Part shown: positions 5,710 through 32,553 of the stretch, one piece after another
How positions within the stretch are numbered: the first letter of the stretch is position 1
Layout of the letters: every line of letters starts with the position of its first letter
Source: Dehalococcoidia bacterium
GTDB lineage: Bacteria; Chloroflexota; Dehalococcoidia; Bin125
DNA: 64,000 nucleotides
Direction: 5' to 3'
Assembly: GCA_963662615.2 (NCBI GenBank)
Contig: CAXXSR010000002.1
Span: 192,001 to 256,000, forward strand
Notes under the pieces: generated by a model
The model's database searches: none
The model's input: only the letters and a program-made list of their open reading frames with translations
Told to the model about the DNA's origin: nothing
Made by a program: the position numbers and the translations under genes

Positions 5710-6840
5710 ATGGATCTTGGCCTGTCCGAAGAGCAGGAGATGCTCCGCAACTTCGCGCGGGACTTCCTGGAGAAGGAGTGCCCGGAGAAGCTGGTGCGCG
5801 AGATGGAGGAGGACGAGCGGGGCTACACCGACGCGCTCTGGCAGGGGATGGCCGCGCAGGGCTGGCAGGGGCTGATGATCCCCGAGGAGCATGGCGGCAA
5901 CGGCTTGCGTTTCCTGGACCTGTGCGTGCTGATGGAGGAGATTGGCCGGGCGCTGGTTCCGGGCCCGTTCCTGAGCACGGCGGTGTTGGGCGCGGTCCCC
6001 GTCCTGGTGGCCGGGAGTGAGCGGCAGAAGCGACGGATCCTGCCGAAGGTCGCGAGCGGGGAGCTGGTGATGACGCTGGCCTTCACGGAGCCGTCGGCGC
6101 GGTTCGACGCCGAGGGGGTGGAGCTGCGCGCGATCAAGGACGGCAAAGACTACGTCCTCAACGGGACAAAGCTGTTCATCCCCGACGCGCACGTGGCCGA
6201 CACGATGGTGGTGGTGGCGCGGACGAGCGGCGCCGGCGAGAAGGGGATTACGCTATTCCTGGTGGACGGCGGCGCGGCCGGGCTGAGCACGACGGTGCTG
6301 AAGACGATCGCGGCGGACAAGCAGTGTGAGGTCAAGTTCCAAGACGTGCGGGTGCCGGCGTCGGCGGTGTTGGGGCGGCGGGGCCAGGGCTGGGAGGTGA
6401 TGACGGCGGTGCGTCGCTACGCCACCGTCGCCTATTGCGCCTACTTGGTGGGGCTGGCCCAGCGCGACTTTGAGATCAGCCTGGACTACGCGAAAGAGCG
6501 CATCCAGTTCGACCGGCCGATTGGCTCCTTCCAGGCGATCCAGCACAAGGCGGCGGACATGGTCACGGACGTGGACGGGTCGCGCTTCATGATGTATCGG
6601 GCGGCCTGGGCGGTGACGGAGAACGAGCCGGACCAGGACCTGCAGGTGAGCATGGCGAAGGCCTGGTGCTCCGACGCGAGCCGTCGGGTGGTCGCCCACG
6701 GCCAGCAGATCCACGGCGGCATTGGCTTCACCAAGGAGTACGTGATCCAGCTCTACTTCCGCCGCCAGAAGATGGCCGAGCTGATGTGGGGCGACGGCGA
6801 CTACCATCGCGCGAGGGTGGCGCAACTGCTGGAGATCTAG
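5710..6840 (+). CDS. Acyl-CoA dehydrogenase family protein
   Basis: MDLGLSEEQEML start, AFTEP, YAKERIQFDRPIGSFQAIQH, QIHGGIGFT. Confidence 0.95.
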   Translation: MDLGLSEEQEMLRNFARDFLEKECPEKLVREMEEDERGYTDALWQGMAAQGWQGLMIPEEHGGNGLRFLDLCVLMEEIGRALVPGPFLSTAVLGAVPVLVAGSERQKRRILPKVASGELVMTLAFTEPSARFDAEGVELRAIKDGKDYVLNGTKLFIPDAHVADTMVVVARTSGAGEKGITLFLVDGGAAGLSTTVLKTIAADKQCEVKFQDVRVPASAVLGRRGQGWEVMTAVRRYATVAYCAYLVGLAQRDFEISLDYAKERIQFDRPIGSFQAIQHKAADMVTDVDGSRFMMYRAAWAVTENEPDQDLQVSMAKAWCSDASRRVVAHGQQIHGGIGFTKEYVIQLYFRRQKMAELMWGDGDYHRARVAQLLEI

Positions 6841-7186
6841 GGCTCAGCGGCGCATTTTCGGAGCGTGGTGGTGGGGTGGCCGGGGCCTCGGGAGGCCGGG
6901 GCGGCTTCACACGGTTTCACGGTTTTCTGTCCCGTTTGCGGCGCGCCGGAAAAAAATTTGGGGGAGGCGGGGCGCACCAGATAGGGGCGAGGCCGATCTG
7001 CTCGCTGCGCGACAGAATCCGTCACGGTTCCGGCAGCTTCTTGCACGGTTTGGACAGGAGTTCCCGGGAGGGTTCCGGGGTGGCTGGGGCAGGGCTGAGG
7101 GCGCGGTCTCCTATCAATCGATACGCGGAGTATAGCACGCGGGGTGCGGATTGGGAAAGGAGGGTGAGGGATCGGGTGGAAGATGG

Positions 7187-7222
7187 AGAGGCCCGTCCTT
7201 CCAGACGGAAGGACGGGCCTCT
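7187..7222 (-). terminator. Perfect 16-bp stem hairpin downstream of the glycine-rich peptide ORF
   Basis: agaggcccgtccttcc-agac-ggaaggacgggcctct. Confidence 0.7.
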
Positions 7223-7244
7223 TTACCGTGCTGGTTTCCGAGAG

Positions 7245-7406
7245 CTACGGGCCGCCACCACCGCCCCCGCCGCCTCCGCCCGCGGCACCGCCGCCCCCGC
7301 CGCCACCCGGGCCGCCGCTACCAAAGGGTGGCTAAGCAAAGGCCGTGCCGACGGCGGCGAGGGTCAGGAGGCCGGCTAGAAGTAGTGCGAGCAGCTTCTC
7401 GCGCAT
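7245..7406 (-). pseudogene. Secreted glycine-rich micro-protein with an in-frame TAG right after the signal peptide
   Basis: RBS gaaagga + ATG 7406; MREKLLALLLAGLLTLAAVGTAFA*PPFGSGGPGGGGGGGAAGGGGGGGGGGP*; internal TAG at 7332-7334; own promoter motif and terminator. Confidence 0.6.
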
Positions 7407-7428
7407 GATTCGTTTTTCCTTTCAGTCC

Positions 7429-7459
7429 CTATATGGGTGAACCGGGCGGGATTGTTACG
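7429..7459 (-). promoter_or_regulatory. ECF-sigma-like promoter motif, copy 1
   Basis: CGTAACAA-N14-CCCATATAG on minus strand; same motif and spacing at 16483-16513. Confidence 0.55.
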
Positions 7460-7738
7460 GCGCGTCTCCAGATTGTGAGCCAAAAGGTTAGGGCGCTCCG
7501 ATAATCGGTCAACTCGCCAGTCGGGGGTGGGGCGCTCTTCATGCCCGTGGCCCATCGACGGGGAGCCCCCGCCCGGCGCCGAGGGGCTCCCACGCGGCCA
7601 TTTCAGCTCGACGAGGAGGACTTGGGCCTCGGTGTCGGCCACGTTCTCCGTGCTGGGCGGGACCGCGTCGATTGGCATCGGCATCGCGCTTCTCCAGAAT
7701 CGCGTGGAGCCGAAGAGTCTGCCTCAGCGGCGGCGGCA

Positions 7739-7766
7739 GAGAGGCCGCTGCGGCGAGCGGCCTCTC
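7739..7766 (-). terminator. Hairpin downstream of S8 peptidase 1
   Basis: gagaggccgct-N6-agcggcctctc. Confidence 0.55.
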
Positions 7767-7803
7767 CAGGCGAACCTCTGTCAGAACCATGGACGCCTAC
7801 GAG

Positions 7804-10318
7804 TTATAGGCACTTCCGGTGGGTTGGGTGGCTGTCGCAGAAGCTGCCGCCGCCGCTGTCGCCGTTTCCGCCTTTGCCGCCCTTGGTCACATTGATGGTG
7901 ACCGTGGCGGGAGCCGAGTAAGCCGTGCCGTCGTTGGCCATGTACGTGAAGTAGTCCTTGCCGGTGAAGCCGGCATTCGGTGTGTAGGTGAAGGAGCCGT
8001 CCGCGTTCAGGGTGAGGGCGCCATTCGAGGGATCGCTGCCGAGCACGGCCGTCAGCGGGTCGCCGTTGGCGTCAGTGTCGTTGGCGAGGACGCCGGGGGC
8101 GGCGACGGTGAGGGTCTGTTCTTTCTTGACGGCGTAGCTGTCGTCCGCCGCGGTGGGTGCGACGTTGGTGTTGGGATCAGTGACCGTGACGACGACCGTG
8201 TCGCTCCCGGTTAGGCCGCCGTTGTCAGTGACGGTGCGGGTGACGGTGTGCGGGCCGACGGCCAAGCTGGGCGTGATGATGGCCGTGGTCCCGAGAACGG
8301 TCGCGCCCTCTTTCCACTCGAAAGTCACGATGAGCCCGTCAGGATCGGAGCCGGAGCCGCTGAAGGTGACGCTTTCGATGCCGTCATTATTGATATCGGG
8401 CAGCGACTGGTCGGGACCGGCGTTGGCGGTGGGTGACTGATTGGGAGCGACACCGACAAGGACGGTGTCAGTGTCCGTGGCGTTCGCGTCGTCGGTGACG
8501 ATGAGCGTGATGGAGTGATCACCCACGCTCAAGGTCACGGTTGGGTTGGGGCCGGTCGCGATCTCGACGCCGCTTTCCGACCACACATGGGAGGTGATCG
8601 ACCCGTCCGGATCGGTCGAGGCGGCGCCGTCTAAGGTTACCTGCTCGTTGCCACCATTGTCGACGTCGGTAACGGTCTGGTCGGGGCCGGCGTCAGCGGT
8701 GGGGGGATCGTTGACCGGCGCGACCGTCACGGCGACGGTGGCGGTAGCGGTCCCGCCCCTGCCGTCGCTCATGGTGTAGGTGAAGCTGTCGCTGGTGGTC
8801 TCGGAACCGTCGTGGGTGTAGGTGACGGCGGATCCGTCCTGGCTAACCGGGCCATGTGCGCCCTGAGAGACGGTGGTGATAGTGAGCGGGTCGCCATCGG
8901 GGTCGCTGTCATTGGAGAGGACGTCGATCGTGCCGTAGCCACCCTCGTCGACGGTGTAGGGGTCGTCGACGGCGGTGGGCGGGGTGTTGGTGGGGCCACC
9001 GGCCAGGTAGAGGAGGCCCTCGTGGTAGGCGTCGGGGTCGTTGGTGTTGGACGGGCCCCAGGCGCCCTGAGGCTGCGCGCCGTCGATGAGGGCCTGGCGG
9101 ATGGCGGCGACGCCGTCGGCGTCGGTGGCGCGGCCGTTGGCGGCGGCGTAGAGGGCTGCCGCGCCGGCCACGTGAGGCGAGGACATGCTGGTCCCGCTAA
9201 TGGTCGCATAGAGGCCGCCGGGATAGGTGGAGAGGACGTTCACGCCGGGAGCGGCGACGTCGATGGCCCTGCCCGGCGAGCTGACGGGGTTCCCTGCGAC
9301 CACACTGCGGCTGAAGTTGGTGTTCGAGTAGAAGGTGTCGTCGGCGCCGCGGCTGGTGGAGGGGCCGAGCCCGCCGGGCCGGCCGTCGGTATCGACCATC
9401 CCGGAGATCGTGGCGGCCTCGGGGTAGGCGGCGGGGATGGAGTCGTCGCTGGTGTTCAAAGTGCCGTCGTTGCCGTACACGTCCCGGGAGCCGTTGCCAG
9501 CCGCGACGACGTAGACCACGCCGGCGGCGACGCTGTTCTGAATGGCCAAGCGCAGGGAGTCGAGTTTCCCGATGCCGCCCAAGCTCATATTGACGACTTC
9601 GATCTGGCCGTTGCCCGTGACGAAATCTATGGCCTCGATAATGTCAGAGAAGCTGCCGGAGCCGTTCTTGTTGAGGACCTTGAGGGCCCACAAACGCGCT
9701 CCGTGGGGCGACGCCGACCACGCCGATGCCGTTGTCGATCGCGGCGGCGGTGCCGGCGACGTGGGTGCCGTGGTAGTTGTCGTCGTCGCCGGTGGCGGCG
9801 CCGTTGATGAAGCTCTGGTTGTAGAAGACGTTCAGGTCCGGGTGATCCAGATCGATGCCGGTATCGAGGATGGCGATGTCCACGTTCATGGGATCGGGGA
9901 CGCCGTCGATGTTGGCGGTGGCGTTCTGGTCCGCGTTGATGCGGTCTATGCCTGGGGGAAGGGTCTGGAAGTTGTTGCCGTGGAGGATGGCGTGCGCCTC
10001 CAGGTCGGGCTCCACGAAGGCGACGTTGGGGTTGTGGGCGAGGGCGGCGGCGGCCGTCGCGGAGAAGCGGACGGCGAAGCCGGTGAGGGCGTGCTGGTAG
10101 GTGTGCAGGAGGGCGCCGCCGTGGGCGCCCACGAGCGCGTTGGCCAGGCCGGGCGGGTCGGCTACGCCGTCATGGAAGACGACGATGTACTGGCCGGGGA
10201 TGACGCCGGGCGGAGACTGCGCTTGTGCGTCGGTGGGAGACAGGCTACCGCCCAGGGCGACCGCGAGGGCCGCGGTGACGCCAAGAGCGAGGGAGACGCG
10301 AAGGAGACATCGTCGCAT
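7804..10318 (-). pseudogene. Secreted S8 subtilase with I9 propeptide and Big/PKD-like Ig domains, split by a +1 frameshift near 9703
   Basis: 5' ORF has signal peptide, ILDTGID (Asp) and HGTHVAG (His); 3' ORF has AAGN, SGTSMSSPHVAG (Ser), PTAVDD/PTADAGPDQ repeats; removing one base restores GVAPGARLWALKVL. Confidence 0.88.
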
Positions 10319-10390
10319 GGCAGCGCCGCCTTCCTGGCGCTCAGCCAGCCAATTCTCCGGCCGGCCGTCACGGGACGCTGTCTTCGGCGT

Positions 10391-10421
10391 CTATAGGACG
10401 AGGGCCGTGCGTCTTGTCTTT
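10391..10421 (-). promoter_or_regulatory. ECF-sigma-like promoter motif, degenerate copy
   Basis: AAAGACAA-N14-GTCCTATAG, about 70 bp upstream of S8 peptidase 1. Confidence 0.35.
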
Positions 10422-10627
10422 CTGGCTGCCTGGGGAACGGGTGGCGGCAGTCAGGACGGCGGCCTTCGCCATTCGCGAGAATCGCAGATTAGGCCGGTGA
10501 GCGACCGCTGTCAACCACACCGGGAGCGCGGGGCTGGGGCGTGGTGCGTCCGCGTCGGCGCCGAGCGAGCCCTCCAGACCGGCGTCACGGGCCCTGTTTA
10601 TGGCCGGGTACCCGGTACCCTGCGCGC

Positions 10628-10656
10628 CCCGTCCTTCCCGGAGGGACGGGCCTCTT
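10628..10656 (-). terminator. Hairpin downstream of the lysyl-oxidase-like gene
   Basis: cccgtccttc-ccg-gagggacggg-cctctt; sequence closely related to the 7187-7222 hairpin. Confidence 0.55.
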
Positions 10657-10671
10657 CATCCGATCAGTGCG

Positions 10672-11595
10672 TCAGCCGCTGGACGTGTGGCGGCACACCC
10701 TGGCGTTCGAGTTCTTGCTGCAGTCGGGGCCGGGGCCACCCCCCGACGACCCGCAACTGCCTTTTTGCAGCGTGAGATTCGTGAAGTCGATGCAGAGCGC
10801 CGCCTGGCTGACGTTCGCGTGGACATTTTCGGTCGTTTCCTTGATCTCCCCGTCACCGCCCACAGGATCGACTTCGATGGTGAGGACGTAGTCGCGGTCG
10901 TTGGCGCCGTCGGCGTTGTTCTGGACCAAGTCGGTCACGTCGACCCACTGGCCGTCCAGGTAGTAGCTGTACTTGTCGCCCCAGCCCACCGACATGCCCT
11001 GGACTTCGCCGCCGCAGGTGCGATAGACGGCCCGCTTGGGCGCGCCGGGCAGTTTTCTGTCAATGCGAGTGGTGTCCATGATGCAGAAGGTGGTCTTGGC
11101 GCCGTGCGCCCTGACATTCTCCCGGTCATTGGGCCGGTGGAGGTCGTAGATGGCGTAGCCCTGAAAGTGGGTATGGTTGTGCCCGTCGTGATAGATGAAG
11201 GTGCCGGCGGGGCTGGCAAGGGTCTCCCAAGTGCCGTCGGCGAGGAGGACGCGCTGGTAGACCTTCTGCTTCTGCGATCCGTTCTGGACGATGATCTCCG
11301 GGTCGGCCCAGAGGTCGAGGGGGCCGTCGCCGCCATTGGCGCTGGTGGTGCTGAAGCGGAGGACGGTGCGCTGCTCCCCGTTGATGGTGACCGTGTCGAA
11401 GCGGAAGTCGGTGGCCGCCAGAGGGTAGAGGTCGGGGTAGAGCGACTGGGGGCTCGCGGCGGCGGGGGTCGGTTCGACGCCTCCGAGACCGGCGGCGAAC
11501 GCCGCGACGGCGCCAGCAATCACGAGGCCGCTAATGGCCGTCCAGGCACGCACGCGGGATCCCTTCGCATCTAGAGTGCGAATTCGCCCTCGCAC
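10672..11595 (-). CDS. Secreted lysyl oxidase-like protein
   Basis: Signal peptide; LRFSTTSAN.GDGPL, YHDGHNHTHF (Cu-binding His cluster), KTTFCIMD (LTQ Lys position), GWGDKY (LTQ Tyr position), GQWVDVTD; start could be GTG about 11553. Confidence 0.8.
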   Translation of the reverse strand: MRGRIRTLDAKGSRVRAWTAISGLVIAGAVAAFAAGLGGVEPTPAAASPQSLYPDLYPLAATDFRFDTVTINGEQRTVLRFSTTSANGGDGPLDLWADPEIIVQNGSQKQKVYQRVLLADGTWETLASPAGTFIYHDGHNHTHFQGYAIYDLHRPNDRENVRAHGAKTTFCIMDTTRIDRKLPGAPKRAVYRTCGGEVQGMSVGWGDKYSYYLDGQWVDVTDLVQNNADGANDRDYVLTIEVDPVGGDGEIKETTENVHANVSQAALCIDFTNLTLQKGSCGSSGGGPGPDCSKNSNARVCRHTSSG

Positions 11596-11662
11596 TCTAG
11601 CGGGGATCGAGCGCGTTGATCTGGCCGGTTTCCACGATGTCCACTGGATCGACAGAAGCGAC

Positions 11663-11688
11663 AGAGCCCGCTCTTGCGAGCGGGCTCT
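11663..11688 (-). terminator. Hairpin downstream of the M10 protease
   Basis: agagcccgctc-ttgc-gagcgggctct. Confidence 0.6.
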
Positions 11689-11718
11689 TGATATCAGCAG
11701 GCTGGGGCGGCGCGGACG

Positions 11719-12603
11719 CTACTTGTTAGGATCGCAATTCGGGTGGTTGGGTTTCTTCGAACAGGGCGGGCCGCCGCCGCCGCCGCCGCCGTCTTCTTCT
11801 TCGCTGCCGCTGGAGGCAGGGTACAGCGCCTTGATCCCGTTCTTGTCGTCCCTGTCCAAATTCTGGTCCACGCCGAGATAGGCGAAATACATCACGGCTT
11901 TCCATTGGGGAGAGTGGCCGAGGCCAGCCACGTGGCCGTTCTCGTGGAGGAAGACGGACTCAACGTCGTAGGTGTTGGCAGCGCCATTGGTGGACCAGGA
12001 GAAATTGGTGTTCATGGCCATGTCGGCTTCGAACGGCGCTGCGGTCCAGTACCAGGTCACGCCCAGCGTGTTGGGGTCATCGAGTGCCATCCAGGCCACG
12101 TCGTTGAGGCCGTCGCGGGTCTGGTTGCCGCATTCGTAGACCGTTGAAGGACAGCGGTTGATGTTCAGATCACCGGCGGCCAGAACGAATGCGGAGCCCT
12201 GAACATTGCTCCACGTCGTGTGGGTTGCGGTTAGAGCCGCCGCGCCACCACCGCCAGTTGGATCGCCGGTGGGGTTGTAGTTCTGGGTTAGGAAATCGGT
12301 GGCGGGGTCACCGTCCGAGAATTGAGGCCAGACCACACCGGTAACGGAAAAGGGAGCGGAGATCGGCTGCGCGCCCTGACGGCGCACGGCTCGCTCGGCC
12401 ACTGCGCGCGCATCCTGGCCCGGGGGCACGACCACGGCGACGTGGACGATGACATCCTCCCCCTGAATCTGGGCGAGACCGAACGCCGATACGACTTGCC
12501 CCGCCAGCGGGCCCTGGGCCTCGGCGCCGTCCGAGCGCAGGCCGAAGGCCAGGCCTACGGCCAGGGCCGCTACTGCGACCGCCGCGATTGAGAATCGTTT
12601 CAT
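11719..12603 (-). CDS. Secreted matrixin-family (M10) zinc metalloprotease
   Basis: HENGHVAGLGH (HExxHxxGxxH), Met-turn AVMY, signal peptide MKRFSIAAV...AEA-Q; RBS gaaagg before ATG 12603. Confidence 0.9.
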   Translation of the reverse strand: MKRFSIAAVAVAALAVGLAFGLRSDGAEAQGPLAGQVVSAFGLAQIQGEDVIVHVAVVVPPGQDARAVAERAVRRQGAQPISAPFSVTGVVWPQFSDGDPATDFLTQNYNPTGDPTGGGGAAALTATHTTWSNVQGSAFVLAAGDLNINRCPSTVYECGNQTRDGLNDVAWMALDDPNTLGVTWYWTAAPFEADMAMNTNFSWSTNGAANTYDVESVFLHENGHVAGLGHSPQWKAVMYFAYLGVDQNLDRDDKNGIKALYPASSGSEEEDGGGGGGGPPCSKKPNHPNCDPNK

Positions 12604-12797
12604 GACAAAGCCGCCCTTTCGCACCAACTCGAAGCTAGTACTAGCATCGGCGTCCTTGCCCCGCCCTTGCCATCAGGGAATCCGCGCCACTCTAGACCGC
12701 GCGACCCTGGATCAACAACGTCGGACGGACCCTCGGCGGATGGATCCACTACTCCTCGGGCGCACGGATGCGCCCGTCGCAGAGGCCTTCCTACACT

Positions 12798-12828
12798 CTA
12801 TGAACGCAGAACTGCCGGAAACGTTACG
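12798..12828 (-). promoter_or_regulatory. ECF-sigma-like promoter motif, copy upstream of the M10 protease
   Basis: CGTAACGT-N14-CGTTCATAG, i.e. AAC-N16-CGT. Confidence 0.5.
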
Positions 12829-12918
12829 GGGTCCGCCCGAAACTTCGGCGAATTACCCCGGAGGCGCGGCACGCAGCCGTCGCTGAGCGCTGGTACGAAG
12901 CCCCTACTCGAAGACGCT

Positions 12919-14013
12919 CTACTCGAAAACGATGACGCCGCGGCCGTCCTCGCCGCGCTCCAGGGCGGCGAAGCCGTCGTTGATCTCATCCAGCGAGTAG
13001 CGGCGCTGGATCAGGCTATCCACGTCGATGCGGCCATCGACGTAGAGGCTCACCAGCGTCGCGAAGGTCTGGTGCGGGCTGGCAGAGCCGTAGTAGCTGC
13101 CCTGAAGCCGCTTTTGCTCACGGGTAAGGATGGCGACGTTGATGGGCGCGCGGTCCTCGAGGGGGGCCAGCCCGATGACGACGGCGGTGCCGCCCTTGCG
13201 AACCGAGTCGAGGGCCTGGGCGGCGATCTCGCCGCCGCCGATGGTGTCAAAGGCGAAGTCCACGCCGCCGCCGCTCAGTTCGCGCACGGCCGCGACCGGA
13301 TCGACCTTGCGAGCGTTGACGACGTCGGTGGCGCCGAAGCCACGGGCGAATTCCAGCTTGTGGTCGTGGACGTCGACGGCAATGATGCGCGAGGCGCTGA
13401 TGGTGCGCGCGCCCTGGACGGTGTTGAGGCCGACGCCGCCGCAGCCGAAGACGGCCACGGTGGCGCCGGGGCGAATGTCGGGCTGATTGACGATGCCGCC
13501 GAAGCCGGTGGTGACGCAGCATCCCATCAGCGCAGCGACCTCCGAGGGCACGGCGTCGGGGATGGGGAAGCAGGCCTGCTCCGGGACGACGATGCTCTCG
13601 GCGAAGACGCCGAGCTTGTTCATTTGCTGGATCTCGGTGCCCTCCGCATCGTGGAGGCGAACGGTGCCGTCGAAGAGCCGCGAGACGTCCTTGCGGTGCG
13701 CGTCGCAGAGCTGGGCGAGGCCGCTGCGGCACATAGGACACTGGCCGCAACTGGAGACGAAGGAGAGGATGCAGCGATCGCCGGGGTTGACGGCGGTGAC
13801 GCCGGGACCGATTGCCTCCACGACGCCCGCCCCCTCATGTCCCAGAACGGAGGGGAGCGGGAAGGCGATGGTGCCATGCATGATGTGATGGTCGCTGAGG
13901 CACAGTCCCGCCGCGCTTATGCGCACGAGGACCTCGCGCTCCCGGGGCTCGTCCTGGCTGAGCTCCTTCACCGTGAGCGGACTGTTGACCTCGTACAGTA
14001 CGGCGGCTTTCAT
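12919..14013 (-). CDS. Zn-dependent alcohol dehydrogenase (MDR)
   Basis: GLCLSD, LGHEGAG, CGQCPMC...C structural Zn site, GCGGVG. Confidence 0.95.
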   Translation of the reverse strand: MKAAVLYEVNSPLTVKELSQDEPREREVLVRISAAGLCLSDHHIMHGTIAFPLPSVLGHEGAGVVEAIGPGVTAVNPGDRCILSFVSSCGQCPMCRSGLAQLCDAHRKDVSRLFDGTVRLHDAEGTEIQQMNKLGVFAESIVVPEQACFPIPDAVPSEVAALMGCCVTTGFGGIVNQPDIRPGATVAVFGCGGVGLNTVQGARTISASRIIAVDVHDHKLEFARGFGATDVVNARKVDPVAAVRELSGGGVDFAFDTIGGGEIAAQALDSVRKGGTAVVIGLAPLEDRAPINVAILTREQKRLQGSYYGSASPHQTFATLVSLYVDGRIDVDSLIQRRYSLDEINDGFAALERGEDGRGVIVFE

Positions 14014-14138
14014 GTGCCCCTCCCTTGTGTGCCAGCGGCGTTGAATGGGGCCGTATGGTAATGCACTATCGAGAGGATGCCAACGGCGCTAGGGCCGAGC
14101 TGCGGTGGCCGAGCTGCGGTGACCGCGCTACAACGAGA

Positions 14139-14162
14139 GCGCCCCGGCCTGAGCCGGGGCGC
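14139..14162 (-). terminator. Hairpin downstream of S8 peptidase 2
   Basis: gcgccccggc-ctga-gccggggcgc. Confidence 0.55.
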
Positions 14163-14186
14163 AACTGTAGGGGCGGGCGACAGTCT

Positions 14187-16286
14187 CTACCTCTGTTTGG
14201 TGTAGAGGTTGAATGGCGTGAGGCCGTTCCAGGTCAATCCAGGAGCGTTCAGTTGAACGACGATCGTGGTGTAGGTCCCGCGCGGCGCGTTGCGGACAAA
14301 CCAGGTGACCGTGCCGTCGGCGCCCGTGTCAGCGGTGCCCTCGCCGATCCAGGCGTCCTCCAGGCGGAAGAGCCAGATAGTCACGCTCGCTCCGGCGACG
14401 GGGTTGCCAAGATCGTCCCTCAGAGTGACCGTCACGTTCAGGTCCTTGAAGCCGCGGCTGAGCCAGTAGCCGTCGATGCCGCTGGGCGTCGTGACGATGA
14501 CGCTGGTGGCGTCAACGACTTCCGAGGCAACGTTGAAGGCGGCCGAGCCAAGGCCACTGATGCCGCGGCCATCGGTGACGCTCACCTGCACGGTGTGCTG
14601 TCCCTCAGCGGGCAGGGCAAGATTCGCGGTGTACATTCCGGGCGTCGCGGTTGGGCCGAACGTCACCGCGGCAGGGGAGCCGTCAAGCGTCGTGGCGAAG
14701 GCGGCGGAGGCGAGCTGGTCGATGGCGGCGCCGTACTCGTCGGTGACGATGGCGGTGACGATCGCGGTGGTATCGGTCCCGATCAGGTAGTCGGACTTGT
14801 CCGTGCTGAGGGCGACAATGACGGCCGGAGGCGCAGCGGTAACGGTGAGGCTGCTGCCAGTGCTGACACCTTCGCTGGACGCGGTGATCGTCGCTGCGCC
14901 GACGGCAAGGCCCGTGGCCAAGCCCGCGGCATCCACGGTTGCGATAGCGCCGACAGAGCTGCTCCAGGCCACCACGGCAGTGACATCGCGGCTGGTGTCG
15001 TCGTCGAAGGTGCCCATGGCGGTGAACTGTTGGCTCTGGCCCACTTCGATCGATGCGCTGCTGGGCGTGACGTCGATGCCGGTCAGCGCGGCGTCGGTGC
15101 CGACGAAGAGCAGCAGGTTGGGCGTGTTCCCCACAGCACTGTAGGCGTGCAACGCGATCTTGCCGGCGCTGGCGTTGCTGGTGATGGCGGCGGCGACGTT
15201 GGCCGGGCTGGCGGATGGATTGGACTCGAGATAGAGCGCCGCGGCGCCGGCGACGTGCGGCGTGGCCATGGAGGTGCCGCTAATGGTCCTGGTGGACTTG
15301 GGGCCGTTCTTCCAGGCCGAGGTGATGTCGACACCGGGGCCGAGAATGTCCACGCAGGTACCGTAGTTCGAGAAGGAGGCCTCTCGGTCGGAGCTGTCGG
15401 TCGCGCCCACGGTGAGCGCGTCGGCAACGCGTGCCGGAGAGATGTTGCAGGCGTCTTCGGGGAAGCCGAAGAAGTTGCCGTTGCCGGCGGCGATGGCGTA
15501 GGTCACCCCGTCGGCGATGGAGTTTTCGACCGCGGTATCCAGCGCGACGCTGGCGGAACCGCCGAGGCTCATGTTGGCAACGGCGGGTTCGCCGGCGACG
15601 TGGTCGCCTGTGACCCAATCGATGGCGGCGATCACGCCACTGTCGCTGCCGCTGCCGCGGCAGTTGAGCACGCGCAGCGCGATCAGATTCACGCTCTTGG
15701 CGACGCCGTAGGTCGCGCCGCCGACCGTACCGGCCACGTGGGTCCCATGGCCGTTACAGTCGCTGGCGACGGCATCGTCGCTGACGAAGTCCCAGCCGTA
15801 GGAGGCGCGGCCCTGAAATTCCCGGTGGGTGATGCGGATGCCGGTATCGATGATGTAGACGTTGACCCCGAGGCCGGTGGGGTTGTGGGTGTAGGCGCCG
15901 TCGAGGGGCAGGTCGCGCTGATCGATGCGATCGAGGCCCCAGGGGGCGTCGGATTGCGTGTCGCTCGCCCAGACCACGCGGTCCGGCTCCACGAAGTCCA
16001 CATTGGGGTTGCGGGCGAGGGCGCCAGCCGCTTGCTCGGAAAGCGTAGCCGCGAAGCCGTTGAGGGCGTGTTGGTAGACGAAATGCAGCGAACCGCCGTT
16101 GGCACGGACGAGCCGATTCGCCAATCCGGGCGCGTCGCGGACGTCGTTGTTGAAGACGACGATGTAGCGGCCGGGGATGACGTCAGGGGGTTGACCCTGG
16201 GCCTCGGCGTCGCCGGATCCCAGGCTCACGCCCAGCCCGATGGCCACGGCCGCCAATGCGACCAGGGCGATGGAGAATCGTTTCAT
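14187..16286 (-). CDS. Secreted S8 serine peptidase (proteinase K/aqualysin-like) with I9 propeptide and Ig-like C-terminal domains
   Basis: [39 protein letters not shown]; BIG2-like [18 protein letters not shown]. Confidence 0.93.
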
Positions 16287-16618: not shown

Positions 16619-17695
16619 TCAGGCCCCCAGCCGCCGTCGCCAGAGGGAGTAGGCAACGCCGACGAGAACGGCCGCGCCGGCGACGGCGCCGATCACACCC
16701 CAGACCCAGGCCGGCGGGTTGTCATCCACGTTGTCACCGCCGCTGCCGGTGGAGGGCAGCGCCTCGGGCGACACGGCCGGGGGTGGAGGCTGCGGTTGGG
16801 GTGGCGGTGGGGGTGGGGGTGGCGGTGGGGGCGGCAGGCCGGCGATGGTGGCGATGGCCGGGAAGCCCAAGATCTCGTTGAGCGTGGCCTCCACGGCGGG
16901 ATTTTCCGGCGCGTTGATCAGGATCACGATGAGGGCGCCCGGTCCCCAGATCGTCGCGTTGGCGGGCGGAGGGACGCCATCGTCGGCGCGGAAGCGATCC
17001 AAGGTCGCCTCCACGGCGGCGGCGCTCTCAAGCTGGTACGGCTCGATCGCGGCGGTACCCACGGGGATCCGCCCCGCGCTGGAAACGGGGATGCCATCGC
17101 GCTGGATGGCGATCTCCTGGAGGGCGGTGGGCAGGCCGGCGGCCGCCAGCGCCGTGAACAGCTCCGCCAACGTTGTGGGCCCTGCCACCGGCTCCGGCTC
17201 AATGACGGGCTCAGCGCGGGGCCCGCGCAGCGTCGCGCCGGGAGGGAGGGGCGCCTCTGGCACGGCGGCGGGCGACAGCTCGCCCTCAGCGAGGCGGAGG
17301 GAATCGCCGCGCAGGTCGGTGTGATAGCGGTAGGCGAGGGCACCGTCGCCGAGCCAGAGCGCCCAGCCGTCCACCAACACTTGGGCGCACAGCTCGCCGA
17401 CGTCGGCGGCTCCGAGACAGGCGTCATTCCAGGTGACCGCCTGGGCGCGGAGGAGCTGGATCGCGTCGGCCGCGGCGCCGCTGCGTTCGGCGAGATCGGC
17501 GGCGGCAGCGGCGAAGGCAGCGTCCGGCGGCTCCTGATTGCGCTGTGCCGAGACGAGGGAGGGCGCAAAGACGGCAAAGGCTGCCGCAAGCAGCAGCGCG
17601 AGGATGGATTGCGCGGCGAGCGATGGAAGGGGTCTCCGGTGCGGCGAGGCGGTTGCAAGGCCCCGGCCGGGCCGAGAGGGTCGATGGCCAGGCAT
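16619..17695 (-). CDS. Secreted surface protein with poly-Pro linker and LPXTG-type anchor
   Basis: Signal peptide; WNDACLG...CAQVLVDGW...YRYHTD domain; P11 tract; LPSTG + TM helix + RRR tail. Confidence 0.75.
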   Translation of the reverse strand: MPGHRPSRPGRGLATASPHRRPLPSLAAQSILALLLAAAFAVFAPSLVSAQRNQEPPDAAFAAAAADLAERSGAAADAIQLLRAQAVTWNDACLGAADVGELCAQVLVDGWALWLGDGALAYRYHTDLRGDSLRLAEGELSPAAVPEAPLPPGATLRGPRAEPVIEPEPVAGPTTLAELFTALAAAGLPTALQEIAIQRDGIPVSSAGRIPVGTAAIEPYQLESAAAVEATLDRFRADDGVPPPANATIWGPGALIVILINAPENPAVEATLNEILGFPAIATIAGLPPPPPPPPPPPPQPQPPPPAVSPEALPSTGSGGDNVDDNPPAWVWGVIGAVAGAAVLVGVAYSLWRRRLGA

Positions 17696-18907: not shown

Positions 18908-20098
18908 TTAGCGAGGAGGATCGCGGTCGGGAGGGTTGCGGAAGGCGTCAATGCCGCCCGGTTTCTTGCGCCGTCGCAGGCGCGGCAGCCTCCGCCTACC
19001 GAGACCGGGGCGGAGCGAGAGCGGGCTCCGTATGCGCGCGCGTCGAGCGGGGGGAACCGGGAACTCTAGGAGGTTGGTGTCGGGAGTTGCGGTGGTATCG
19101 AGCGGGGGTGGGCGGTGGGGCTGGCGTTGGCTCTGGCGGTGGCGGCGCGCGCCGAAGCCGAAGCCGAAGCTGGGGGGCAGGTTCCAGGTGGGGCCGATGG
19201 CTCCGGCGGGCGCGCGCCAGCGGCCGATCAGGAAGGGGTAGATGAGAGCCATGCCGGCCACGAAGCCGCCGATGTGGGCGAACCAGGCGGTGCCGCCGCT
19301 GCCGACAGCATCGCCGGCGATGGAACCGACGCCGCTGATCAGGTTGAGGAGGAACCAGAAGCCGATCATGAGCGGCGCCGGAATGACCGCGGGGATAAAG
19401 AAGATGATGGGGATCAGGACCTGGATCATGGAGCGGGGGAAAAGGAGGAGGTAGGCGCCGAGGACGCCGGAGATGGCGCCGCTGGCGCCGATCATGGGCA
19501 CGAGGTCGCCGCTGTCGATCAAGATGTGGGCGGCGACGGCGGCGTACCCGATGACCATGTAGAAGAGGGCGAAGCGGACGTGGCCGAGGCGGTCTTCGAC
19601 GTTGTCGGCGAAGACCCAGAGGAAGAGCATGTTGCCAATGAGGTGCAGGAAGCCGCCGTGCAGGAACATGGCGAAGAGCGGCGTGAGGAGGAGGAGGATG
19701 AGGCCATCGAAGAGTTGGACGCCCTGCAGCTCCACCACGTCGTGGGACGTCGAATTGCCGTCGATCTCGCCGGTGATGAACTCGGGGACGGCACCGAACC
19801 GCAGCGTGAACTCGTCCCGCGGTGAAACGGGATAGCGGACGAACACGTCCGACCCTAGCCGACGAGGGAAGACGAACTCGCCGGCGCTTTCGAGACGCGG
19901 ATCCGCCGCGGCGATCGCCTCTGCTGCTTGGGGGCTTCCCGCTTCGGTGATGGCGGCGTCGTCGATGATGAAGACAGCGCGAGTCGGGGTATCGTTCATC
20001 ACGAACATCAGCAAGAAGACGAGGACGTTAATGACGATAAGCGCCCTGGTGACATAGGGCGTCGTGGTGCGCCACTGGCTGTCGCGGATGGGAATCAT
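18908..20098 (-). CDS. Rhomboid family intramembrane serine protease
   Basis: MFLHGGFLHLIGNMLFLW, GASG (Ser), WFAHIGG (His). Confidence 0.93.
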   Translation of the reverse strand: MIPIRDSQWRTTTPYVTRALIVINVLVFLLMFVMNDTPTRAVFIIDDAAITEAGSPQAAEAIAAADPRLESAGEFVFPRRLGSDVFVRYPVSPRDEFTLRFGAVPEFITGEIDGNSTSHDVVELQGVQLFDGLILLLLTPLFAMFLHGGFLHLIGNMLFLWVFADNVEDRLGHVRFALFYMVIGYAAVAAHILIDSGDLVPMIGASGAISGVLGAYLLLFPRSMIQVLIPIIFFIPAVIPAPLMIGFWFLLNLISGVGSIAGDAVGSGGTAWFAHIGGFVAGMALIYPFLIGRWRAPAGAIGPTWNLPPSFGFGFGARRHRQSQRQPHRPPPLDTTATPDTNLLEFPVPPARRARIRSPLSLRPGLGRRRLPRLRRRKKPGGIDAFRNPPDRDPPR

Positions 20099-24326: not shown

Positions 24327-25124
24327 ATGGATACGGCGACGCTGATCGGCCTGCTGCTGGGATTCGTTGGCGTTTTTAGCGGCAACATGATGGAGGGCGG
24401 CTCGCCGACGGCGCTGATCAACATGCCGGGGTTCCTGATCGTGGTGGTCGGATCGCTGGGGGCGGGGATCATGGCCGTGCCCATGGACACGGTCAAACGG
24501 CTGCCGAAATACATGGGCAAGGCGTTTAAAGAGCAATCGGTGGACACGGCCAAGATCGTGCCGCTGTTCGAGAAGATGGCGGACAAGGCGCGTCGAGAGG
24601 GCCTGCTCTCCTTGGAGGAGGAGGCCAACAACATTGATGACGAATTCACGCGCAAGGGGATGCAGCTGATCGTGGACGGGACGGACCCGGAGGCGCTGCG
24701 TGAGATCATGGAGACGGAGATCACCTCCATGGAGGAGCGCCACCACCAAGGCAGCGGCTTCTTTGAGATCATTGGCGGGTTCGCGCCGACGCTGGGGGTG
24801 CTGGGCACGATCATGGGGCTGATCTCGGTCCTGAGCCACTTGGACGACAGCGCGAACTTGGGGCACGGCATTGCCGTGGCCTTCGTGGCGTCGTTCTACG
24901 GCGTCTTCACCGCGAACCTGATCTGGTTGCCGCTGGCCAACAAACTGAAGCTGAAGAGCAAAAAGGAAGTGCAGATGCGGGAGGCGGTGCTGGAAGGCTT
25001 GATGGCGATTCAGGCCGGGGACAATCCGCGCATCGTCAAGGACAAATTGCAGGGCTACCTGGCACCGTCCGACCGGGGCGCCGCTGAGGAGGCAGAGACG
25101 GCGGCCAGCGCGGAGGCGGCGTGA
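24327..25124 (+). CDS. motA: Flagellar stator MotA
   Basis: ARREGLLSLE, APTLGVLGTIMGLI, AIQAGDNP. Confidence 0.96.
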   Translation: MDTATLIGLLLGFVGVFSGNMMEGGSPTALINMPGFLIVVVGSLGAGIMAVPMDTVKRLPKYMGKAFKEQSVDTAKIVPLFEKMADKARREGLLSLEEEANNIDDEFTRKGMQLIVDGTDPEALREIMETEITSMEERHHQGSGFFEIIGGFAPTLGVLGTIMGLISVLSHLDDSANLGHGIAVAFVASFYGVFTANLIWLPLANKLKLKSKKEVQMREAVLEGLMAIQAGDNPRIVKDKLQGYLAPSDRGAAEEAETAASAEAA

Positions 25125-25885
25125 GCAAGCGGGCCAAGAAGGCCGAGGCCCACGGCGGCGACGAGCGCTGGCTGATCACGTACGCGGACCTGGTGACCCT
25201 CCTGTTCGCGCTGTTCATTGTGCTCTTTGCCTCAGCCGAGCCGAACGGCGACAAGCTGGCGCGAACGGCGCAGTCGATCTCGGAAGCGTTCAACGTCGGC
25301 ATTCTCAGCGGCAGTGGCGGGGCCGGTTCCCTGTTCGACGAGGACGGTGGGACCGTGGCGCCGGATTTTGGCACCGTGGAGCGCAAGGAGTTCCAGCTGA
25401 TCAGCGACGAACTCACGGAGGCGGCGTTGGAGCTGCAGGTCTACGAGCAGGTGCAGGTGCGGTTGTCGGACGAGGGGATCGTGGTGTCGCTCTCCAACAA
25501 CCTGCTGTTCGCTCCGGCCAGCGCGGTGATGAACGACGACGCGCGCCCGCTCTTGGATCGCGTGGGGGCGACGCTGGCGGGTCTTCCCAACTTGATCCGG
25601 GTGGAGGGGCACACCGACGACATTCCGGTGAACTCGGGCGAATTCGCGAGCAACTGGGAGCTGTCCACGTCGCGGGCCACCGCCGTGTTGCGCTACTTGG
25701 TGGACACGAGCGGCGCGACGCCGAGCCGCATCCACGCGGCCGGGTACGCCCATTTTCAGCCGGTGGCCGACAACGCGACGCCGGAGGGGCGGGCGCAGAA
25801 CCGACGAGCGGACATTGTGATTCTGTACTCGACTGCGGCCATCGGCAGCGAGGCGGGGGCCAGCATCCCTGTGGGGGAGGAGTAA
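25121..25885 (+). CDS. motB: Flagellar stator MotB
   Basis: WLITYADLVTLL (conserved Asp), OmpA-like EGHTDD...SNWELS...NRR. Confidence 0.96.
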   Translation: MSKRAKKAEAHGGDERWLITYADLVTLLFALFIVLFASAEPNGDKLARTAQSISEAFNVGILSGSGGAGSLFDEDGGTVAPDFGTVERKEFQLISDELTEAALELQVYEQVQVRLSDEGIVVSLSNNLLFAPASAVMNDDARPLLDRVGATLAGLPNLIRVEGHTDDIPVNSGEFASNWELSTSRATAVLRYLVDTSGATPSRIHAAGYAHFQPVADNATPEGRAQNRRADIVILYSTAAIGSEAGASIPVGEE

Positions 25886-25888
25886 ACC

Positions 25889-26374
25889 ATGCTCGCAAAT
25901 CGCACGGTGCGCATGGGTCTGGTGGGCGTGCTGATCGTAGTGATCGGCTACATGTTCGTGCTGCCGCGGATGCAATCAAGCGACGCGGAGGCGGCCGTGC
26001 CGGAGCACCCGAACCCGGGACCCACGTACACGCTGGAGGCGAAGGTCTACAACTTGCTGACGCCGGCGGCGCAGACTCAGCGCTACTTGAAGGTGGGCAT
26101 GGTGTTCGAGTTTGAAGCGGAAGATCCAGCGTTCTTCGAACTGGAAGGGGAGGCGCTGGCCGTGGAGCTGGAACATTTCGCGGAGACGTTAGCGCCGAAG
26201 CGGCCGATCCTGGAGGACGCCGTGGGCGGCCTGGTCGCCAGCAAGACGCTGGACGATATTTCGACGGCGCTGGGGCGACAACAGTTCAAGGACGAACTGA
26301 GGGAGGCGGTGGGGGAGATTGTAGGGGAACCCCAGCTTCTGACCGTGTATCTGACCGAGTTCGTGTTCCAGTAG
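25889..26374 (+). CDS. fliL: Flagellar basal body-associated FliL
   Basis: N-terminal TM, YNL...RYLKV, C-terminal VYLTEFVFQ; lies between motB and fliM. Confidence 0.85.
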   Translation: MLANRTVRMGLVGVLIVVIGYMFVLPRMQSSDAEAAVPEHPNPGPTYTLEAKVYNLLTPAAQTQRYLKVGMVFEFEAEDPAFFELEGEALAVELEHFAETLAPKRPILEDAVGGLVASKTLDDISTALGRQQFKDELREAVGEIVGEPQLLTVYLTEFVFQ

Positions 26375-26376
26375 CC

Positions 26377-27495
26377 ATGGCCGACACCGACAACCTCAGC
26401 CAGCGAGAAATTGACAGCCTGCTGAAGTCCGGGCCCACGGATGCGGCGGACCAGCCGACCGCGCCGCGGCCGGGATCCCGTCTGGCCGGGCTGGCCAAGA
26501 CGGTGAAGCGCTATGACTTTCGGCGCCCGGACAAGTTCTCCAAGGAGCACCTGCGCACGCTGCAGGCGGTGCACGAATCGTTCGCACGGCTGGTGGCGTC
26601 CTCGCTGTCGAACCAACTGCGGACCGATGTGGAGATGAAGGTGGCGTCGATTGATCAAGGTCTCTACGAGGAGTACGTGGAGCAAACGGTCGGTCCGGTA
26701 TTCGTGGGCTTGGTGCGGATGGCGCCTCTGGACGGCTCAATTGTGATCGAGTTCGGGCAGGACCTGGGCTTGGTGATCGTGGACCGGCTCTTAGGGGGTC
26801 CGGGAGCGTTGTTGGAACACGGTCATGAGGTGACGGACATTGAACTGGAGTTGGTGCGCGGCTTCGGCGGCACGCTGGCGCGGAACTTGGGAGAGGCCTG
26901 GGAGAACCTGGCGAAGGTGGAGCCGACGATCTCCGATATGCACCAGGACATCCAGCAGGCGCGGCTGGCCCCGGCCTCCGAGGTGGTGATCATGGTCTTC
27001 ATGGAGGTCACGGTCGTGGGCGTGGTGGGGGGCATGAGCATCTGCACGCCGTTCAGCGTGCTGGAGCCCCTCCTGTCGCGCCTCACCGCGAACGTCTGGG
27101 TGGGGACGGGCGGCGCGAAGAACGTGCCGGCGGAGAGCCGAAAGAAGCTGCAGCGGCAACTTGAGCGGACGCCGACATCGATCGGGGTGGAACTGGGAAG
27201 CGCGGCGGTGCGCACCGCCGATCTGGCGCAGTTGCACGTGGGCGACGTGATCCGCTTGGAGGGGCTGGCGACGCGGCCAGTGGCGGTGAGCATGGGCAGG
27301 ATCCGCAAGTGGTACGGCCGTCCCGGCGTGGTCTCCGGGCGCGTTTCTGTGCAGTTGGAGGAGTGGGCGCCGGCGGAGGCGCCGAACCCCACGTCCGCGG
27401 ACGAGCCGGGGGCGTCCGCCGGGCCCAGCGAGGAGCCGGCGAACGTGGTCCCGCTGCCCGCGACACAGGAAAGCGAGGACGCCCGTGCCGCCTGA
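26377..27495 (+). CDS. fliM: Flagellar motor switch FliM
   Basis: LSQREIDSLL, YDFRRPDKFSKEHLR, C-terminal SpoA domain. Confidence 0.95.
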   Translation: MADTDNLSQREIDSLLKSGPTDAADQPTAPRPGSRLAGLAKTVKRYDFRRPDKFSKEHLRTLQAVHESFARLVASSLSNQLRTDVEMKVASIDQGLYEEYVEQTVGPVFVGLVRMAPLDGSIVIEFGQDLGLVIVDRLLGGPGALLEHGHEVTDIELELVRGFGGTLARNLGEAWENLAKVEPTISDMHQDIQQARLAPASEVVIMVFMEVTVVGVVGGMSICTPFSVLEPLLSRLTANVWVGTGGAKNVPAESRKKLQRQLERTPTSIGVELGSAAVRTADLAQLHVGDVIRLEGLATRPVAVSMGRIRKWYGRPGVVSGRVSVQLEEWAPAEAPNPTSADEPGASAGPSEEPANVVPLPATQESEDARAA

Positions 27496-28534
27496 TCCGG
27501 CGATCTCTCCCGAGGCATTGATGGAAGACGAGACGTTCGTGGACTTCGGACGCCAACTGGGGGACGTGGCGCCGGTGGTGGCAGAGAGCGTGTTGAGCCG
27601 GCGTATCAGCTTCGCCAACGGCGCTTTGCGCCCGACGAGCGGAGCGGACATTGAGGAGGCGTTCGGCGCTCTGCCGCACGTGGCGGTGGAGACGCGCATT
27701 GCGCTGTCGGAGTCGGAGGCGTACCTGGGGACGGTGCTGCTGCCGCTGGCGACGGTGACGGCGCTGCTGGGCGCGGCGGGCGAGGCCGAGCCGGCGGCTG
27801 CCGACGAGGCCGCGGCCCTGCGAGAACAAATGGAAGCGAAGGCGCCGGAGTTCGTGAGCCTGCTCACGCTCATGCTCTTCACGGACTCACCGCTGCGTGC
27901 GGAGATCAGTGTGTCGGAGGTCCGCGGCGACTCCATTGAGGAGAGCGTGGGCATGCTGGTGGACAGCGCCGGCAATCCGACGTTGTACCGCTTGGACGCC
28001 GATCTGCAGTTTGGCGAGGACGAGCGGGGCGCGCTGACGCTCATTCTCCCGGCGGCGTTGCCGAGCGCCCTGGTGCGCGGGTTGACGGGCGCGGGCAAGA
28101 GCGCGGCGAACGCGAGTGGAACGCGGCCGCGCGACGAGGAAGGAAACGAACCAGCGCCGCGCCGGGCCATTGATCTGGATGACGACGAGGACGACGAGGA
28201 GTCCATCCCGATCTCGCCGTTGCAGTTCCCGAGCCTTCAGGCGGACGCGGGCGGCGGCGGTCCCCCGCAGCCGCTCGATCTCATCCTGGACGTCACGATG
28301 CGGGTCAGCGTGGAGCTGGGCAGGGCGACGCTGACGGTCCAGGAGATCTTGGCGCTGGGCCCGGGCTCCGTGGTGGAGCTGGACAAGCTGGCGGGCGAGC
28401 CGGTGGACATCCTGGTGAATGAGCGCCTGATTGCGCGGGGCGAGGTGGTCATGGTGGATGAAAACTTCGGCGTGCGGGTGACCGAGATCCTGTCACCGGG
28501 GGCGAACGCCGCCGCGATGAGGCGCGCCGCATGA
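27485..28534 (+). CDS. fliN: FliN / FliY-like switch protein with a long N-terminal domain
   Basis: C-terminal LDLILDVTMRVSVELG...GSVVELDKLAGEPVDILVN...GVRVTEI. Confidence 0.88.
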   Translation: MPPDPAISPEALMEDETFVDFGRQLGDVAPVVAESVLSRRISFANGALRPTSGADIEEAFGALPHVAVETRIALSESEAYLGTVLLPLATVTALLGAAGEAEPAAADEAAALREQMEAKAPEFVSLLTLMLFTDSPLRAEISVSEVRGDSIEESVGMLVDSAGNPTLYRLDADLQFGEDERGALTLILPAALPSALVRGLTGAGKSAANASGTRPRDEEGNEPAPRRAIDLDDDEDDEESIPISPLQFPSLQADAGGGGPPQPLDLILDVTMRVSVELGRATLTVQEILALGPGSVVELDKLAGEPVDILVNERLIARGEVVMVDENFGVRVTEILSPGANAAAMRRAA

Positions 28535-30314: not shown

Positions 30315-30351
30315 GCGCGTATGGCCGGGAGGCCTGAGGAGGCGGAGAGGT

Positions 30352-30618
30352 ATGTCGGAGGAGTTCGTCGTAGCGCTGGGCAGAGACGCCGTGATGACGG
30401 CCTTGATGGTGGCCGCGCCCATCTTGGGCTTCAGCCTGGTCACGGGCTTGGTGGTGTCGATCTTCCAGGCGGTCACGCAGATCAACGAGATCACGTTGAC
30501 CTTCGTGCCCAAGATCTTGGCGGTGTTCTTGTCGCTGGCGCTGTTCGGCCCGTGGAGCATGGGCGTGATAGTGGGCTTCTCGGAGCGACTGTTGGGCAAT
30601 TTGGGCGCGGTGGCCTAG
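30352..30618 (+). CDS. fliQ: Flagellar export gate FliQ
   Basis: FQAVTQINEITLTFVPK. Confidence 0.96.
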   Translation: MSEEFVVALGRDAVMTALMVAAPILGFSLVTGLVVSIFQAVTQINEITLTFVPKILAVFLSLALFGPWSMGVIVGFSERLLGNLGAVA

Positions 30619-30673
30619 GACGGCGCGCGCGGCGAGACGATGGATCGCAGGCAAGTGAACGGAAACGCAGCCC

Positions 30674-31447: not shown

Positions 31448-31455
31448 CGTAACGC

Positions 31456-32550: not shown

Positions 32551-32553
32551 GCC

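Follow-up and report, generated by a model that had tools for sequence, protein, structure and literature searches.

Why would three secreted enzymes of unrelated fold, encoded next to one another, end in the same kind of short, cysteine-bracketed tail? The question is posed by positions 7804 to 12603 of a 64,000-nucleotide stretch of DNA (hereafter the window, meaning the whole stretch analyzed, whose numbering is used throughout) from a Dehalococcoidia bacterium (assembly GCA_963662615.2, contig CAXXSR010000002.1, positions 192,001 to 256,000), the genome of which comprises 2.66 Mb in two contigs at 68% G+C and is 93.6% complete. An M10 (matrixin-like) metalloprotease, a lysyl-oxidase-like protein (LOX) and an S8 protease are encoded there by adjacent genes on the minus strand, and their C-termini have a common anatomy, namely a Gly-rich linker, two Cys residues enclosing eight others (C-x8-C) and one to six polar residues before the stop. 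The features concerned are the following:

11719..12603, minus strand: M10 (matrixin-like) secreted metalloprotease, 294 aa from MKRFS; PF00413, E 6e-13
11734..11763, minus strand: M10 tail loop CSKKPNHPNC, with linker SGSEEEDGGGGGGGPP (11764-11811) upstream and DPNK and the stop downstream
10672..11595, minus strand: lysyl-oxidase-like (LOX) secreted protein, 307 aa; PF01186, E 1.7e-13
10693..10722, minus strand: LOX tail loop CSKNSNARVC, with linker SCGSSGGGPGPD upstream and RHTSSG and the stop downstream
7804..9693, minus strand: S8 protease, C-terminal open reading frame (ORF), with the rest of the catalytic domain, Big_9/cadherin-like and PKD domains and the tail (Pfam); 99% identity to residues 205-837 of P0241, a near-identical intact protein of 837 aa in a public collection
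9644..10318, minus strand: S8 protease, N-terminal ORF, with signal peptide, Inhibitor_I9 propeptide and the start of the catalytic domain (Pfam); 99% identity to P0241 residues 1-207
7810..7839, minus strand: S8 tail loop CDSHPTHRKC, with linker KGGKGGNGDSGGGSF upstream and L and the stop downstream; its Cys are the only two of the mature protein
9703..9704, no strand: S8 frameshift site, with one letter fewer in four of four sequencing runs; P0241 reads GVAPGARLWALK across the site

The tail is real, is undescribed in the libraries that we searched and occurs more widely than could be seen from the window. The preliminary description of this stretch, made from its letters, had proposed a new sorting or cross-linking signal; overall, that interpretation was supported in part, in that the tail proved to be a shared, modular element on unrelated secreted enzymes. 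The sorting-signal reading itself fared badly, and the behavior of the tail is that of a labile accessory to a protease family, not of a new sorting system. In the reading that we tentatively favor, it would tether the enzyme that carries it.

Each of the three tails was present as first quoted, with identical Cys spacing, a Lys in the loop and no hydrophobic stretch, and their coordinates were checked. The enzyme folds are indeed unrelated, as Pfam gives Peptidase_M10, Lysyl_oxidase and Peptidase_S8, and a signal-like hydrophobic N-terminal segment was seen by inspection in all three proteins. M10 scored 49.3 bits against PF00413 (cut-off 24), which places it in the family, and residues H220, E221, H224, G227 and H230 of its zinc motif HExxHxxGxxH were conserved or invariant in an alignment of 64 sequences; AlphaFold 2 (AF2) modeled the body of the protein with a mean predicted local distance difference test score (pLDDT) of 85 and the tail with 50-60. 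LOX likewise belongs to its family (51.1 bits against PF01186, cut-off 20.4), and in an alignment with human LOXL2 (5ZE3) the segments HDGHNHTH and HDCHRHYH, GAKTTFC and GHKASFC, and DKYSY and DMYRH were paired, so that the HxHxH, Lys and Tyr positions were covered. The residues taken to be catalytic are the Cu-binding HxHxH and the Lys and Tyr of the lysine tyrosylquinone (LTQ) cofactor; because these positions are kept, LOX is plausibly active. For the S8 protease one correction is needed: the gene is split by a frameshift near 9703/9704 in this assembly, with PF00082 matched by both halves. Because P0241 is intact and the contigs of all four runs, which come from four different studies, lack the extra letter, either an assembly error or a mutation private to the strain explains the break. 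A promoter and terminator scan of 7300-13000 gave no signal above shuffles.

A C-x8-C-x0-8 end was found in 149 of 18,416 stop-to-stop frames of at least 80 aa, nearly all of them Arg-rich non-coding frames, and such ends are commonplace in the Arg-/Cys-rich non-coding frames of this high-GC genome. When a G-rich upstream stretch was required, 31 of 25,481 frames of at least 60 aa were left, among which only the three tailed genes looked coding; coding status was judged by eye from composition and codon-position G+C, with no gene caller, and two further frames of high third-position G+C (GC3) inspected among the 31 looked antisense. The three tails are the sole such C-termini in the 2.66-Mb genome. 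A tail profile that had the three tails in its training set matched exactly M10, LOX and S8 in the genome at E <= 10, and an external profile, for which six tails from other organisms were the sole input, ranked M10 first (E 4e-9) and LOX second (E 2.9e-4) among the 6,354 C-termini of frames that could plausibly be coding. The likeness between the M10 and LOX tails therefore goes further than the bare pattern. An alignment of the DNA of the three tails gave no sign of recent copying, and the Ser of the CSK that opens both the M10 and the LOX loop is encoded by TCG in one gene and by AGC in the other.

The tail was found in other organisms, chiefly on the metalloprotease. Six of 120 M10 database homologs (one being the window's own protein) ended in a linker and a terminal cationic Cys loop, and five ended in a knottin-like module of four to six Cys, the last loop of which was again C-x8-C and cationic. 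A contig scan with the M10 alignment, using one genome per species of the Genome Taxonomy Database (GTDB), yielded 80 M10 loci, 76 with a complete 3' end; the terminal cationic Cys loop was present in 11 of these 76 and a multi-Cys module in two. The 11 loop-bearing loci were distributed over Dehalococcoidia (5), Nitrososphaerota (3, Nitrosopumilus and relatives), Candidatus Nealsonbacteria (1), Candidatus Acidiferrales (1) and Bryobacterales (1), and many had an x9 form, CPPGxxRxGxC, with the stop codon directly after it. The loop was also carried by the M10 genes of three genomes designated G271, G273 and G010, the last of which belongs to the window's own family and has an x9 tail on an M10-like ORF. 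What precedes the loop varied from the catalytic domain directly to CarboxypepD_reg, PKD plus Big_7, or long Thr/Pro- or Asp/Pro-rich spacers, and in some cases the Thr/Pro-rich spacer filled all 25 residues examined before the loop; this variety is the behavior of a module on a spacer. The LOX orthologs found in two of 64 family members were both without the Cys loop.

The tail is rare in any one sample of genomes. With the tail profile, real tails were found in three of 401 genomes of the class sample (G271, G273 and the window's own, G000; a match in G259, an unpublished genome, was spurious) and in one of 401 genomes of the phylum sample, the window's own, while the x9 profile found tails in two of 201 genomes of a Nitrosopumilaceae-type sample. 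Five other genomes searched whole with the x9 profile had the tail on M10 alone, one gene in each. Marginal profile matches were rejected as non-coding Arg-rich frames: seven of nine non-own matches in the class sample at E <= 0.01, five in the phylum sample at about 1e-3, and 14 in the five genomes at 0.07-0.9. A 29-position tail profile searched against 1.84 billion representative proteins returned P0241 alone at E <= 0.001; a profile this short cannot reach significance and is uninformative on breadth. The last 68 residues of S8, used as a query, retrieved only tandem-95/Big_9 repeat proteins, with the tail in none of 120. The M10-like ORF of G010 (L005, G010:C389) has three in-frame TGA codons upstream of its catalytic domain and may be a pseudogene, an assembly problem or a case of recoding, and the tailed M10 gene of a Bryobacterales metagenome-assembled genome (L097) is 5'-truncated directly beside a DDE transposase gene.

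Very different in sequence, the 21 tails collected nevertheless had several properties in common. Six to nine residues lay in the loop, the net charge of the loop was +1 to +4 in every tail, and the number of Cys outside the tail was even in all 21 proteins (zero in S8). With an even count elsewhere, each tail Cys is left with the other as its sole possible partner, so that the disulfide loop suggested in the preliminary description is very probable. Lys was present in 14 of the 21 loops, the other seven having Arg only, and His was present in six and absent from 15, the local LOX among them.

The tail is also evolutionarily labile. On a FastTree phylogeny of 160 catalytic domains, the 17 loop-bearing rows needed 13 state changes, compared with a mean of 16.4 and a minimum of 14 for shuffles (0 of 500 shuffles were as low as 13); the tree was a quick one with several long branches, and the exact change count is soft. 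On this evidence the tail is only weakly clustered and has often been gained, lost or swapped for other C-terminal modules. M10 homologs (P0141, P0161, P0196, P0203, P0209 and the Bryobacterales loci L038 and L045) have a four- to six-Cys module behind Thr-/Gly-rich linkers, with the knottin-like pattern C-x6-C-x5-CC-x3-C-x8-C, the six-Cys form being that of P0141, P0209, L038 and L045. P0203, P0141 and P0209 have the same acidic poly-Gly linker but carry the four- to six-Cys module in place of the single loop, and in the tree P0203 falls together with the single-loop pair L046/P0194 (support 85). Compared with the inhibitor cystine knot (ICK) families of Pfam and the PDB, the multi-Cys modules gave sub-threshold scores only, and the local tails, with two Cys, are not ICK units, which have six (C-C-CC-C-C) and three disulfides. 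Among 120 LOX homologs, seven ended in a Cys pair, and four joined a G-rich stretch to a terminal Cys pair, e.g. GNGNGNGGCNPNRPNCPGS.

That the tail is not a named family, as first stated, was borne out. Nine tails compared with Pfam and NCBIfam at E <= 10 gave no model match beyond low-complexity noise and a lone match to the SVAGG family (10.5 bits, E 0.22, against a model cut-off of 150 bits). A look-up of the tail in the ESM Atlas gave no usable match, and the open-access literature searched yielded only tripartite signals and nothing on disulfide-loop tails of secreted proteases.

What, then, might the tail do? Small disulfide-stabilized binding modules on linkers are familiar from knottin-like and CBM1-like C-terminal modules, and the local tails share with them the order of enzyme, flexible linker and tiny Cys-stabilized C-terminal unit; unlike them, they have only about ten residues, one possible disulfide and no predicted fold. 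Because an enzyme is followed by a flexible spacer and a Cys-stapled cationic end that is interchangeable with a knottin-like unit, we favor a non-covalent, charge-assisted tether, although we hold this with rather less than even confidence. The tail would accordingly be a minimal binding or tethering module, evolutionarily labile and locally spread within a laterally acquired exoenzyme island. Its spacer (poly-Gly/acidic here, Thr/Pro- or Asp/Pro-rich elsewhere) would be flexible, and its loop, 10-11 residues long, net-positive and at the very C-terminus, would be closed by a disulfide between the two Cys. As a tethered ligand, the loop may bind, non-covalently and mainly through its charge, to an anionic polymer belonging to the cell envelope or to the substrate, and so keep the enzyme at its work site in the manner of a small binding module on a linker; it would not be a cleaved, enzyme-processed sorting signal. 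Anatomy, recurrence, positive charge, Cys parity and the want of a hydrophobic segment, of many substrates and of a syntenic partner are what was observed; the disulfide itself and the binding function are what we infer from them. In the wider picture, the tail is a recurrent, labile feature of one M10 (matrixin-like) clade in bacteria and archaea, present here also on two neighboring exoenzymes, LOX-like and S8, in an island that close relatives lack.

The evidence for such an island is compositional and phyletic. G+C is 0.667-0.673 across window positions 6001-16000, about 3 points lower than in the flanks (0.70-0.72). M10 was found in four of 41 relatives, the window's own genome counted, LOX in the two family members mentioned above, and the tailed S8 had a full-length match in none of 64 family members at E <= 1e-20, G009 giving partial domain matches only. 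Taken together, the lower G+C and the scarcity of the three genes among relatives suggest that the region from 6 to 16 kb is a laterally acquired exoenzyme island. The same region holds another gene of relevance:

14187..16286, minus strand: second S8 protease, tail-less (Pfam), with a signal peptide homologous to that of M10

The signal peptides of M10 (12511-12603, minus strand) and of this tail-less S8 (16194-16286, minus strand), MKRFSIA...DAEAQG, are identical at 73 of 93 nt (78%) and 21 of 31 aa, and the likeness stops at the predicted cleavage site, identity falling to 29% over the next 93 nt. Since the two share a signal-peptide module, terminal modules have moved between unrelated genes of the island, which makes a local spread of the C-terminal tail plausible.

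Several points weigh against a tether. The proposal is drawn from sequence anatomy, and we put it forward as possible rather than probable. The S8 tail was only weakly similar by the external profile (rank 5, E 2, not significant), so that it has the same design as the others (G-rich linker, x8 spacing and a P-T-H core) without significant profile similarity. The 21 proteins are mutually related, and counts such as 21 of 21 overstate independence. The loop subtypes are very unlike one another (CSKxPxHPNC, C[VI]P[KR]GNGNNC and CPPGxxRxGxC) and, to judge by that, may differ in action or be convergent. With tail pLDDT values of 50-60, no structure supports a hairpin. Finally, no homolog of DsbA, DsbB, VKOR or Thioredoxin_4 was found in this 93.6% complete genome, though the secreted M10 and LOX have paired Cys; any disulfide would then need to arise unaided, and otherwise the thiols may be free. 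In a bolder version of the tether, which we regard as unlikely, the tail would represent a new class of transmembrane-less C-terminal localization tags that dock exoenzymes on a specific envelope receptor or polymer in Dehalococcoidia, ammonia-oxidizing archaea, Patescibacteria and Acidobacteriota, and that would here co-localize a protease-oxidase-protease trio as an extracellular protein-processing unit.

The alternative that survives best, although we doubt it, is a regulatory or protective peptide directed at a protease, the loop either folding into the active site to confer latency in the manner of a cysteine switch, or acting as an inhibitor of the Bowman-Birk/SFTI-1 kind that shields co-secreted proteins. 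The Bowman-Birk reactive loop is the nine-residue C-T-[KR]-S-x-P-P-x-C (C-x7-C), and the cysteine switch of matrixins, PRCGxPD, has a single Cys in an N-terminal propeptide. With the former, the local tail would share a length of about ten residues, closure by a disulfide and the presence of Lys and Pro; with the latter, it shares a Cys in a peptide joined to a protease of matrixin type. The sequence C-S-K-x-P, seen in several x8 loops, resembles both, His adjoins Cys in some loops, and the flexible linker is long enough to reach the active site of an enzyme from the one metalloprotease clade on which the tail is chiefly found. The same tail, however, occurs on a lysyl oxidase and on a subtilase, its sequence is variable, and its spacing is x8 or x9, i.e. 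8-9 loop residues against seven in Bowman-Birk, with the T-K-S-x-P-P core present in none of the loops. The x9 loops have neither His nor C-S-K, and a pair of conserved Cys with even parity indicates a disulfide and not a zinc-binding thiol. AF2 gave no confident docking of the tail (pLDDT 50-60). A predicted complex of the M10 catalytic domain with the tail scored 0.02, compared with a mark of 0.32, and speaks neither for nor against this reading.

Next comes the view that the tail has no specific function and is either left over from a larger C-terminal module of the knottin-like type or no more than a disulfide end-cap shielding the flexible linker from exopeptidases. Related M10 proteins do have four- to six-Cys modules that end in a loop of matching C-x8-C spacing and composition, gain or loss is frequent (13 changes for 17 carriers), and 114 of 120 M10 homologs do without the loop. 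In the window's M10, however, linker and loop are the sole C-terminal extension, so a cap would have nothing else to protect; positive charge is kept in all 21 loops despite very different sequences; and the TCG/AGC difference between the M10 and LOX Ser codons speaks for selection or long retention, not for a recent neutral copy. On balance we consider absence of function an unlikely explanation, which leaves the charged tether still ahead of it.

The sorting or cross-linking signal of the preliminary description is improbable on the present evidence. On that view the tagged proteins would be fixed to the envelope or to one another, either by an enzyme devoted to the task or by the lysyl oxidase encoded alongside, with the loop Lys as its target. 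The tail resembles the tripartite sorting signals (LPXTG, PEP-CTERM, GlyGly-CTERM, MYXO-CTERM) in being a short tag at the extreme C-terminus of unrelated secreted enzymes, behind a low-complexity spacer rich in Gly, Ser, Thr or Pro; moreover, the Cu-binding His, the Lys and the Tyr of LOXL2 have aligned counterparts in LOX, and a Lys is present in all three local loops. The C-terminal sorting signals described by Haft (2023, bioRxiv 10.1101/2023.06.07.544157) are all tripartite, with a motif, a transmembrane segment and an Arg cluster, and four have an invariant Cys; the local tail has two Cys, 8-9 residues apart, and, unlike every tag of the type described there, lacks both a hydrophobic segment and a terminal basic cluster. 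Just one to six polar residues follow the second Cys here, and none in the x9 tails, which leaves no room for a transmembrane segment, and among the nine tails compared with NCBIfam and Pfam none matched a curated model. A dedicated sorting system also implies many substrates and a cognate enzyme, and neither was found: carriers number three here and exactly one, always M10, in each of the five other genomes searched whole; in 10 loci around tailed M10 genes no neighboring gene was conserved, and no co-located enzyme was apparent; and the tail is rare in the sampled genomes. Cross-linking by LOX does not hold up as a general role, given that PF01186 was not found in G271, G273 or G010 (completeness 95, 86 and 84%), all of which have a tailed M10, that the LOX orthologs of two relatives are without the Cys loop, and that Lys is present in only 14 of the 21 loops. 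A classical sortase substrate is in fact encoded 4 kb away on the minus strand (window 16619-17695; P0362). It is a surface protein that had no annotation, and it combines a signal peptide and a stalk of about 20 consecutive Pro with LPSTG, a hydrophobic helix and RRR; together with four PF04203 sortase genes in the genome, it indicates that this organism uses an ordinary sorting system. 

A redox- or metal-active tail is as poorly placed. In this view, Cys that stay reduced (with His in some loops) would bind metal, or disulfides between molecules would link the three enzymes with one another or with a surface protein. In its favor, the canonical disulfide-forming enzymes searched for were not found in the genome, the three tagged enzymes are encoded together, and the pattern of the loop is C-x2-H-x2-H-x2-C in S8 and Cys, His and Cys in M10. 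Against it, 15 of 21 loops have no His and the single tailed protein of each of the five other genomes has no tagged partner with which to pair.

Short C-terminal tags determine the destination of secreted enzymes, and to our knowledge the well-described prokaryotic ones all rely on a membrane-spanning segment and a dedicated protease. Here a tag-like element of about ten residues, with neither a membrane-spanning segment nor a known dedicated protease, is common to extracellular proteases across domains of life, in Dehalococcoidia, ammonia-oxidizing archaea and candidate-phyla bacteria, organisms that are abundant in the environment and hard to culture. If the tail does tether, such cells would have in it a cheap way of keeping costly exoenzymes near, and protein engineers a portable handle of very small size; should it be only a labile decoration on a single protease family, the finding amounts to a modest point of annotation. 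In both cases the motif merits a model in a family database instead of annotation as a low-complexity tail. We regard it as moderately interesting, and its function is cheaply testable.

Three further observations were made. About 20 of the 120 LOX homologs (P0002-P0110) have short Gly/Asn-rich, Arg-terminated cationic tails, e.g. GPGNGNGRGNGRGPR, a second recurrent tail type whose likeness to the Cys loop does not go beyond composition; most are without Cys, and no described family was found for them. A rhomboid-family protein is encoded at window 18908-20098 on the minus strand (PF01694, E 1.4e-30), and no NCBIfam model, rhombosortase included, matches it. Lastly, positions 24327-36074 of the window, which lies on the 653-kb second contig, hold a flagellar cluster (MotA/B, FliL, FliM, FliN, FliO, FlhB and FlhA).

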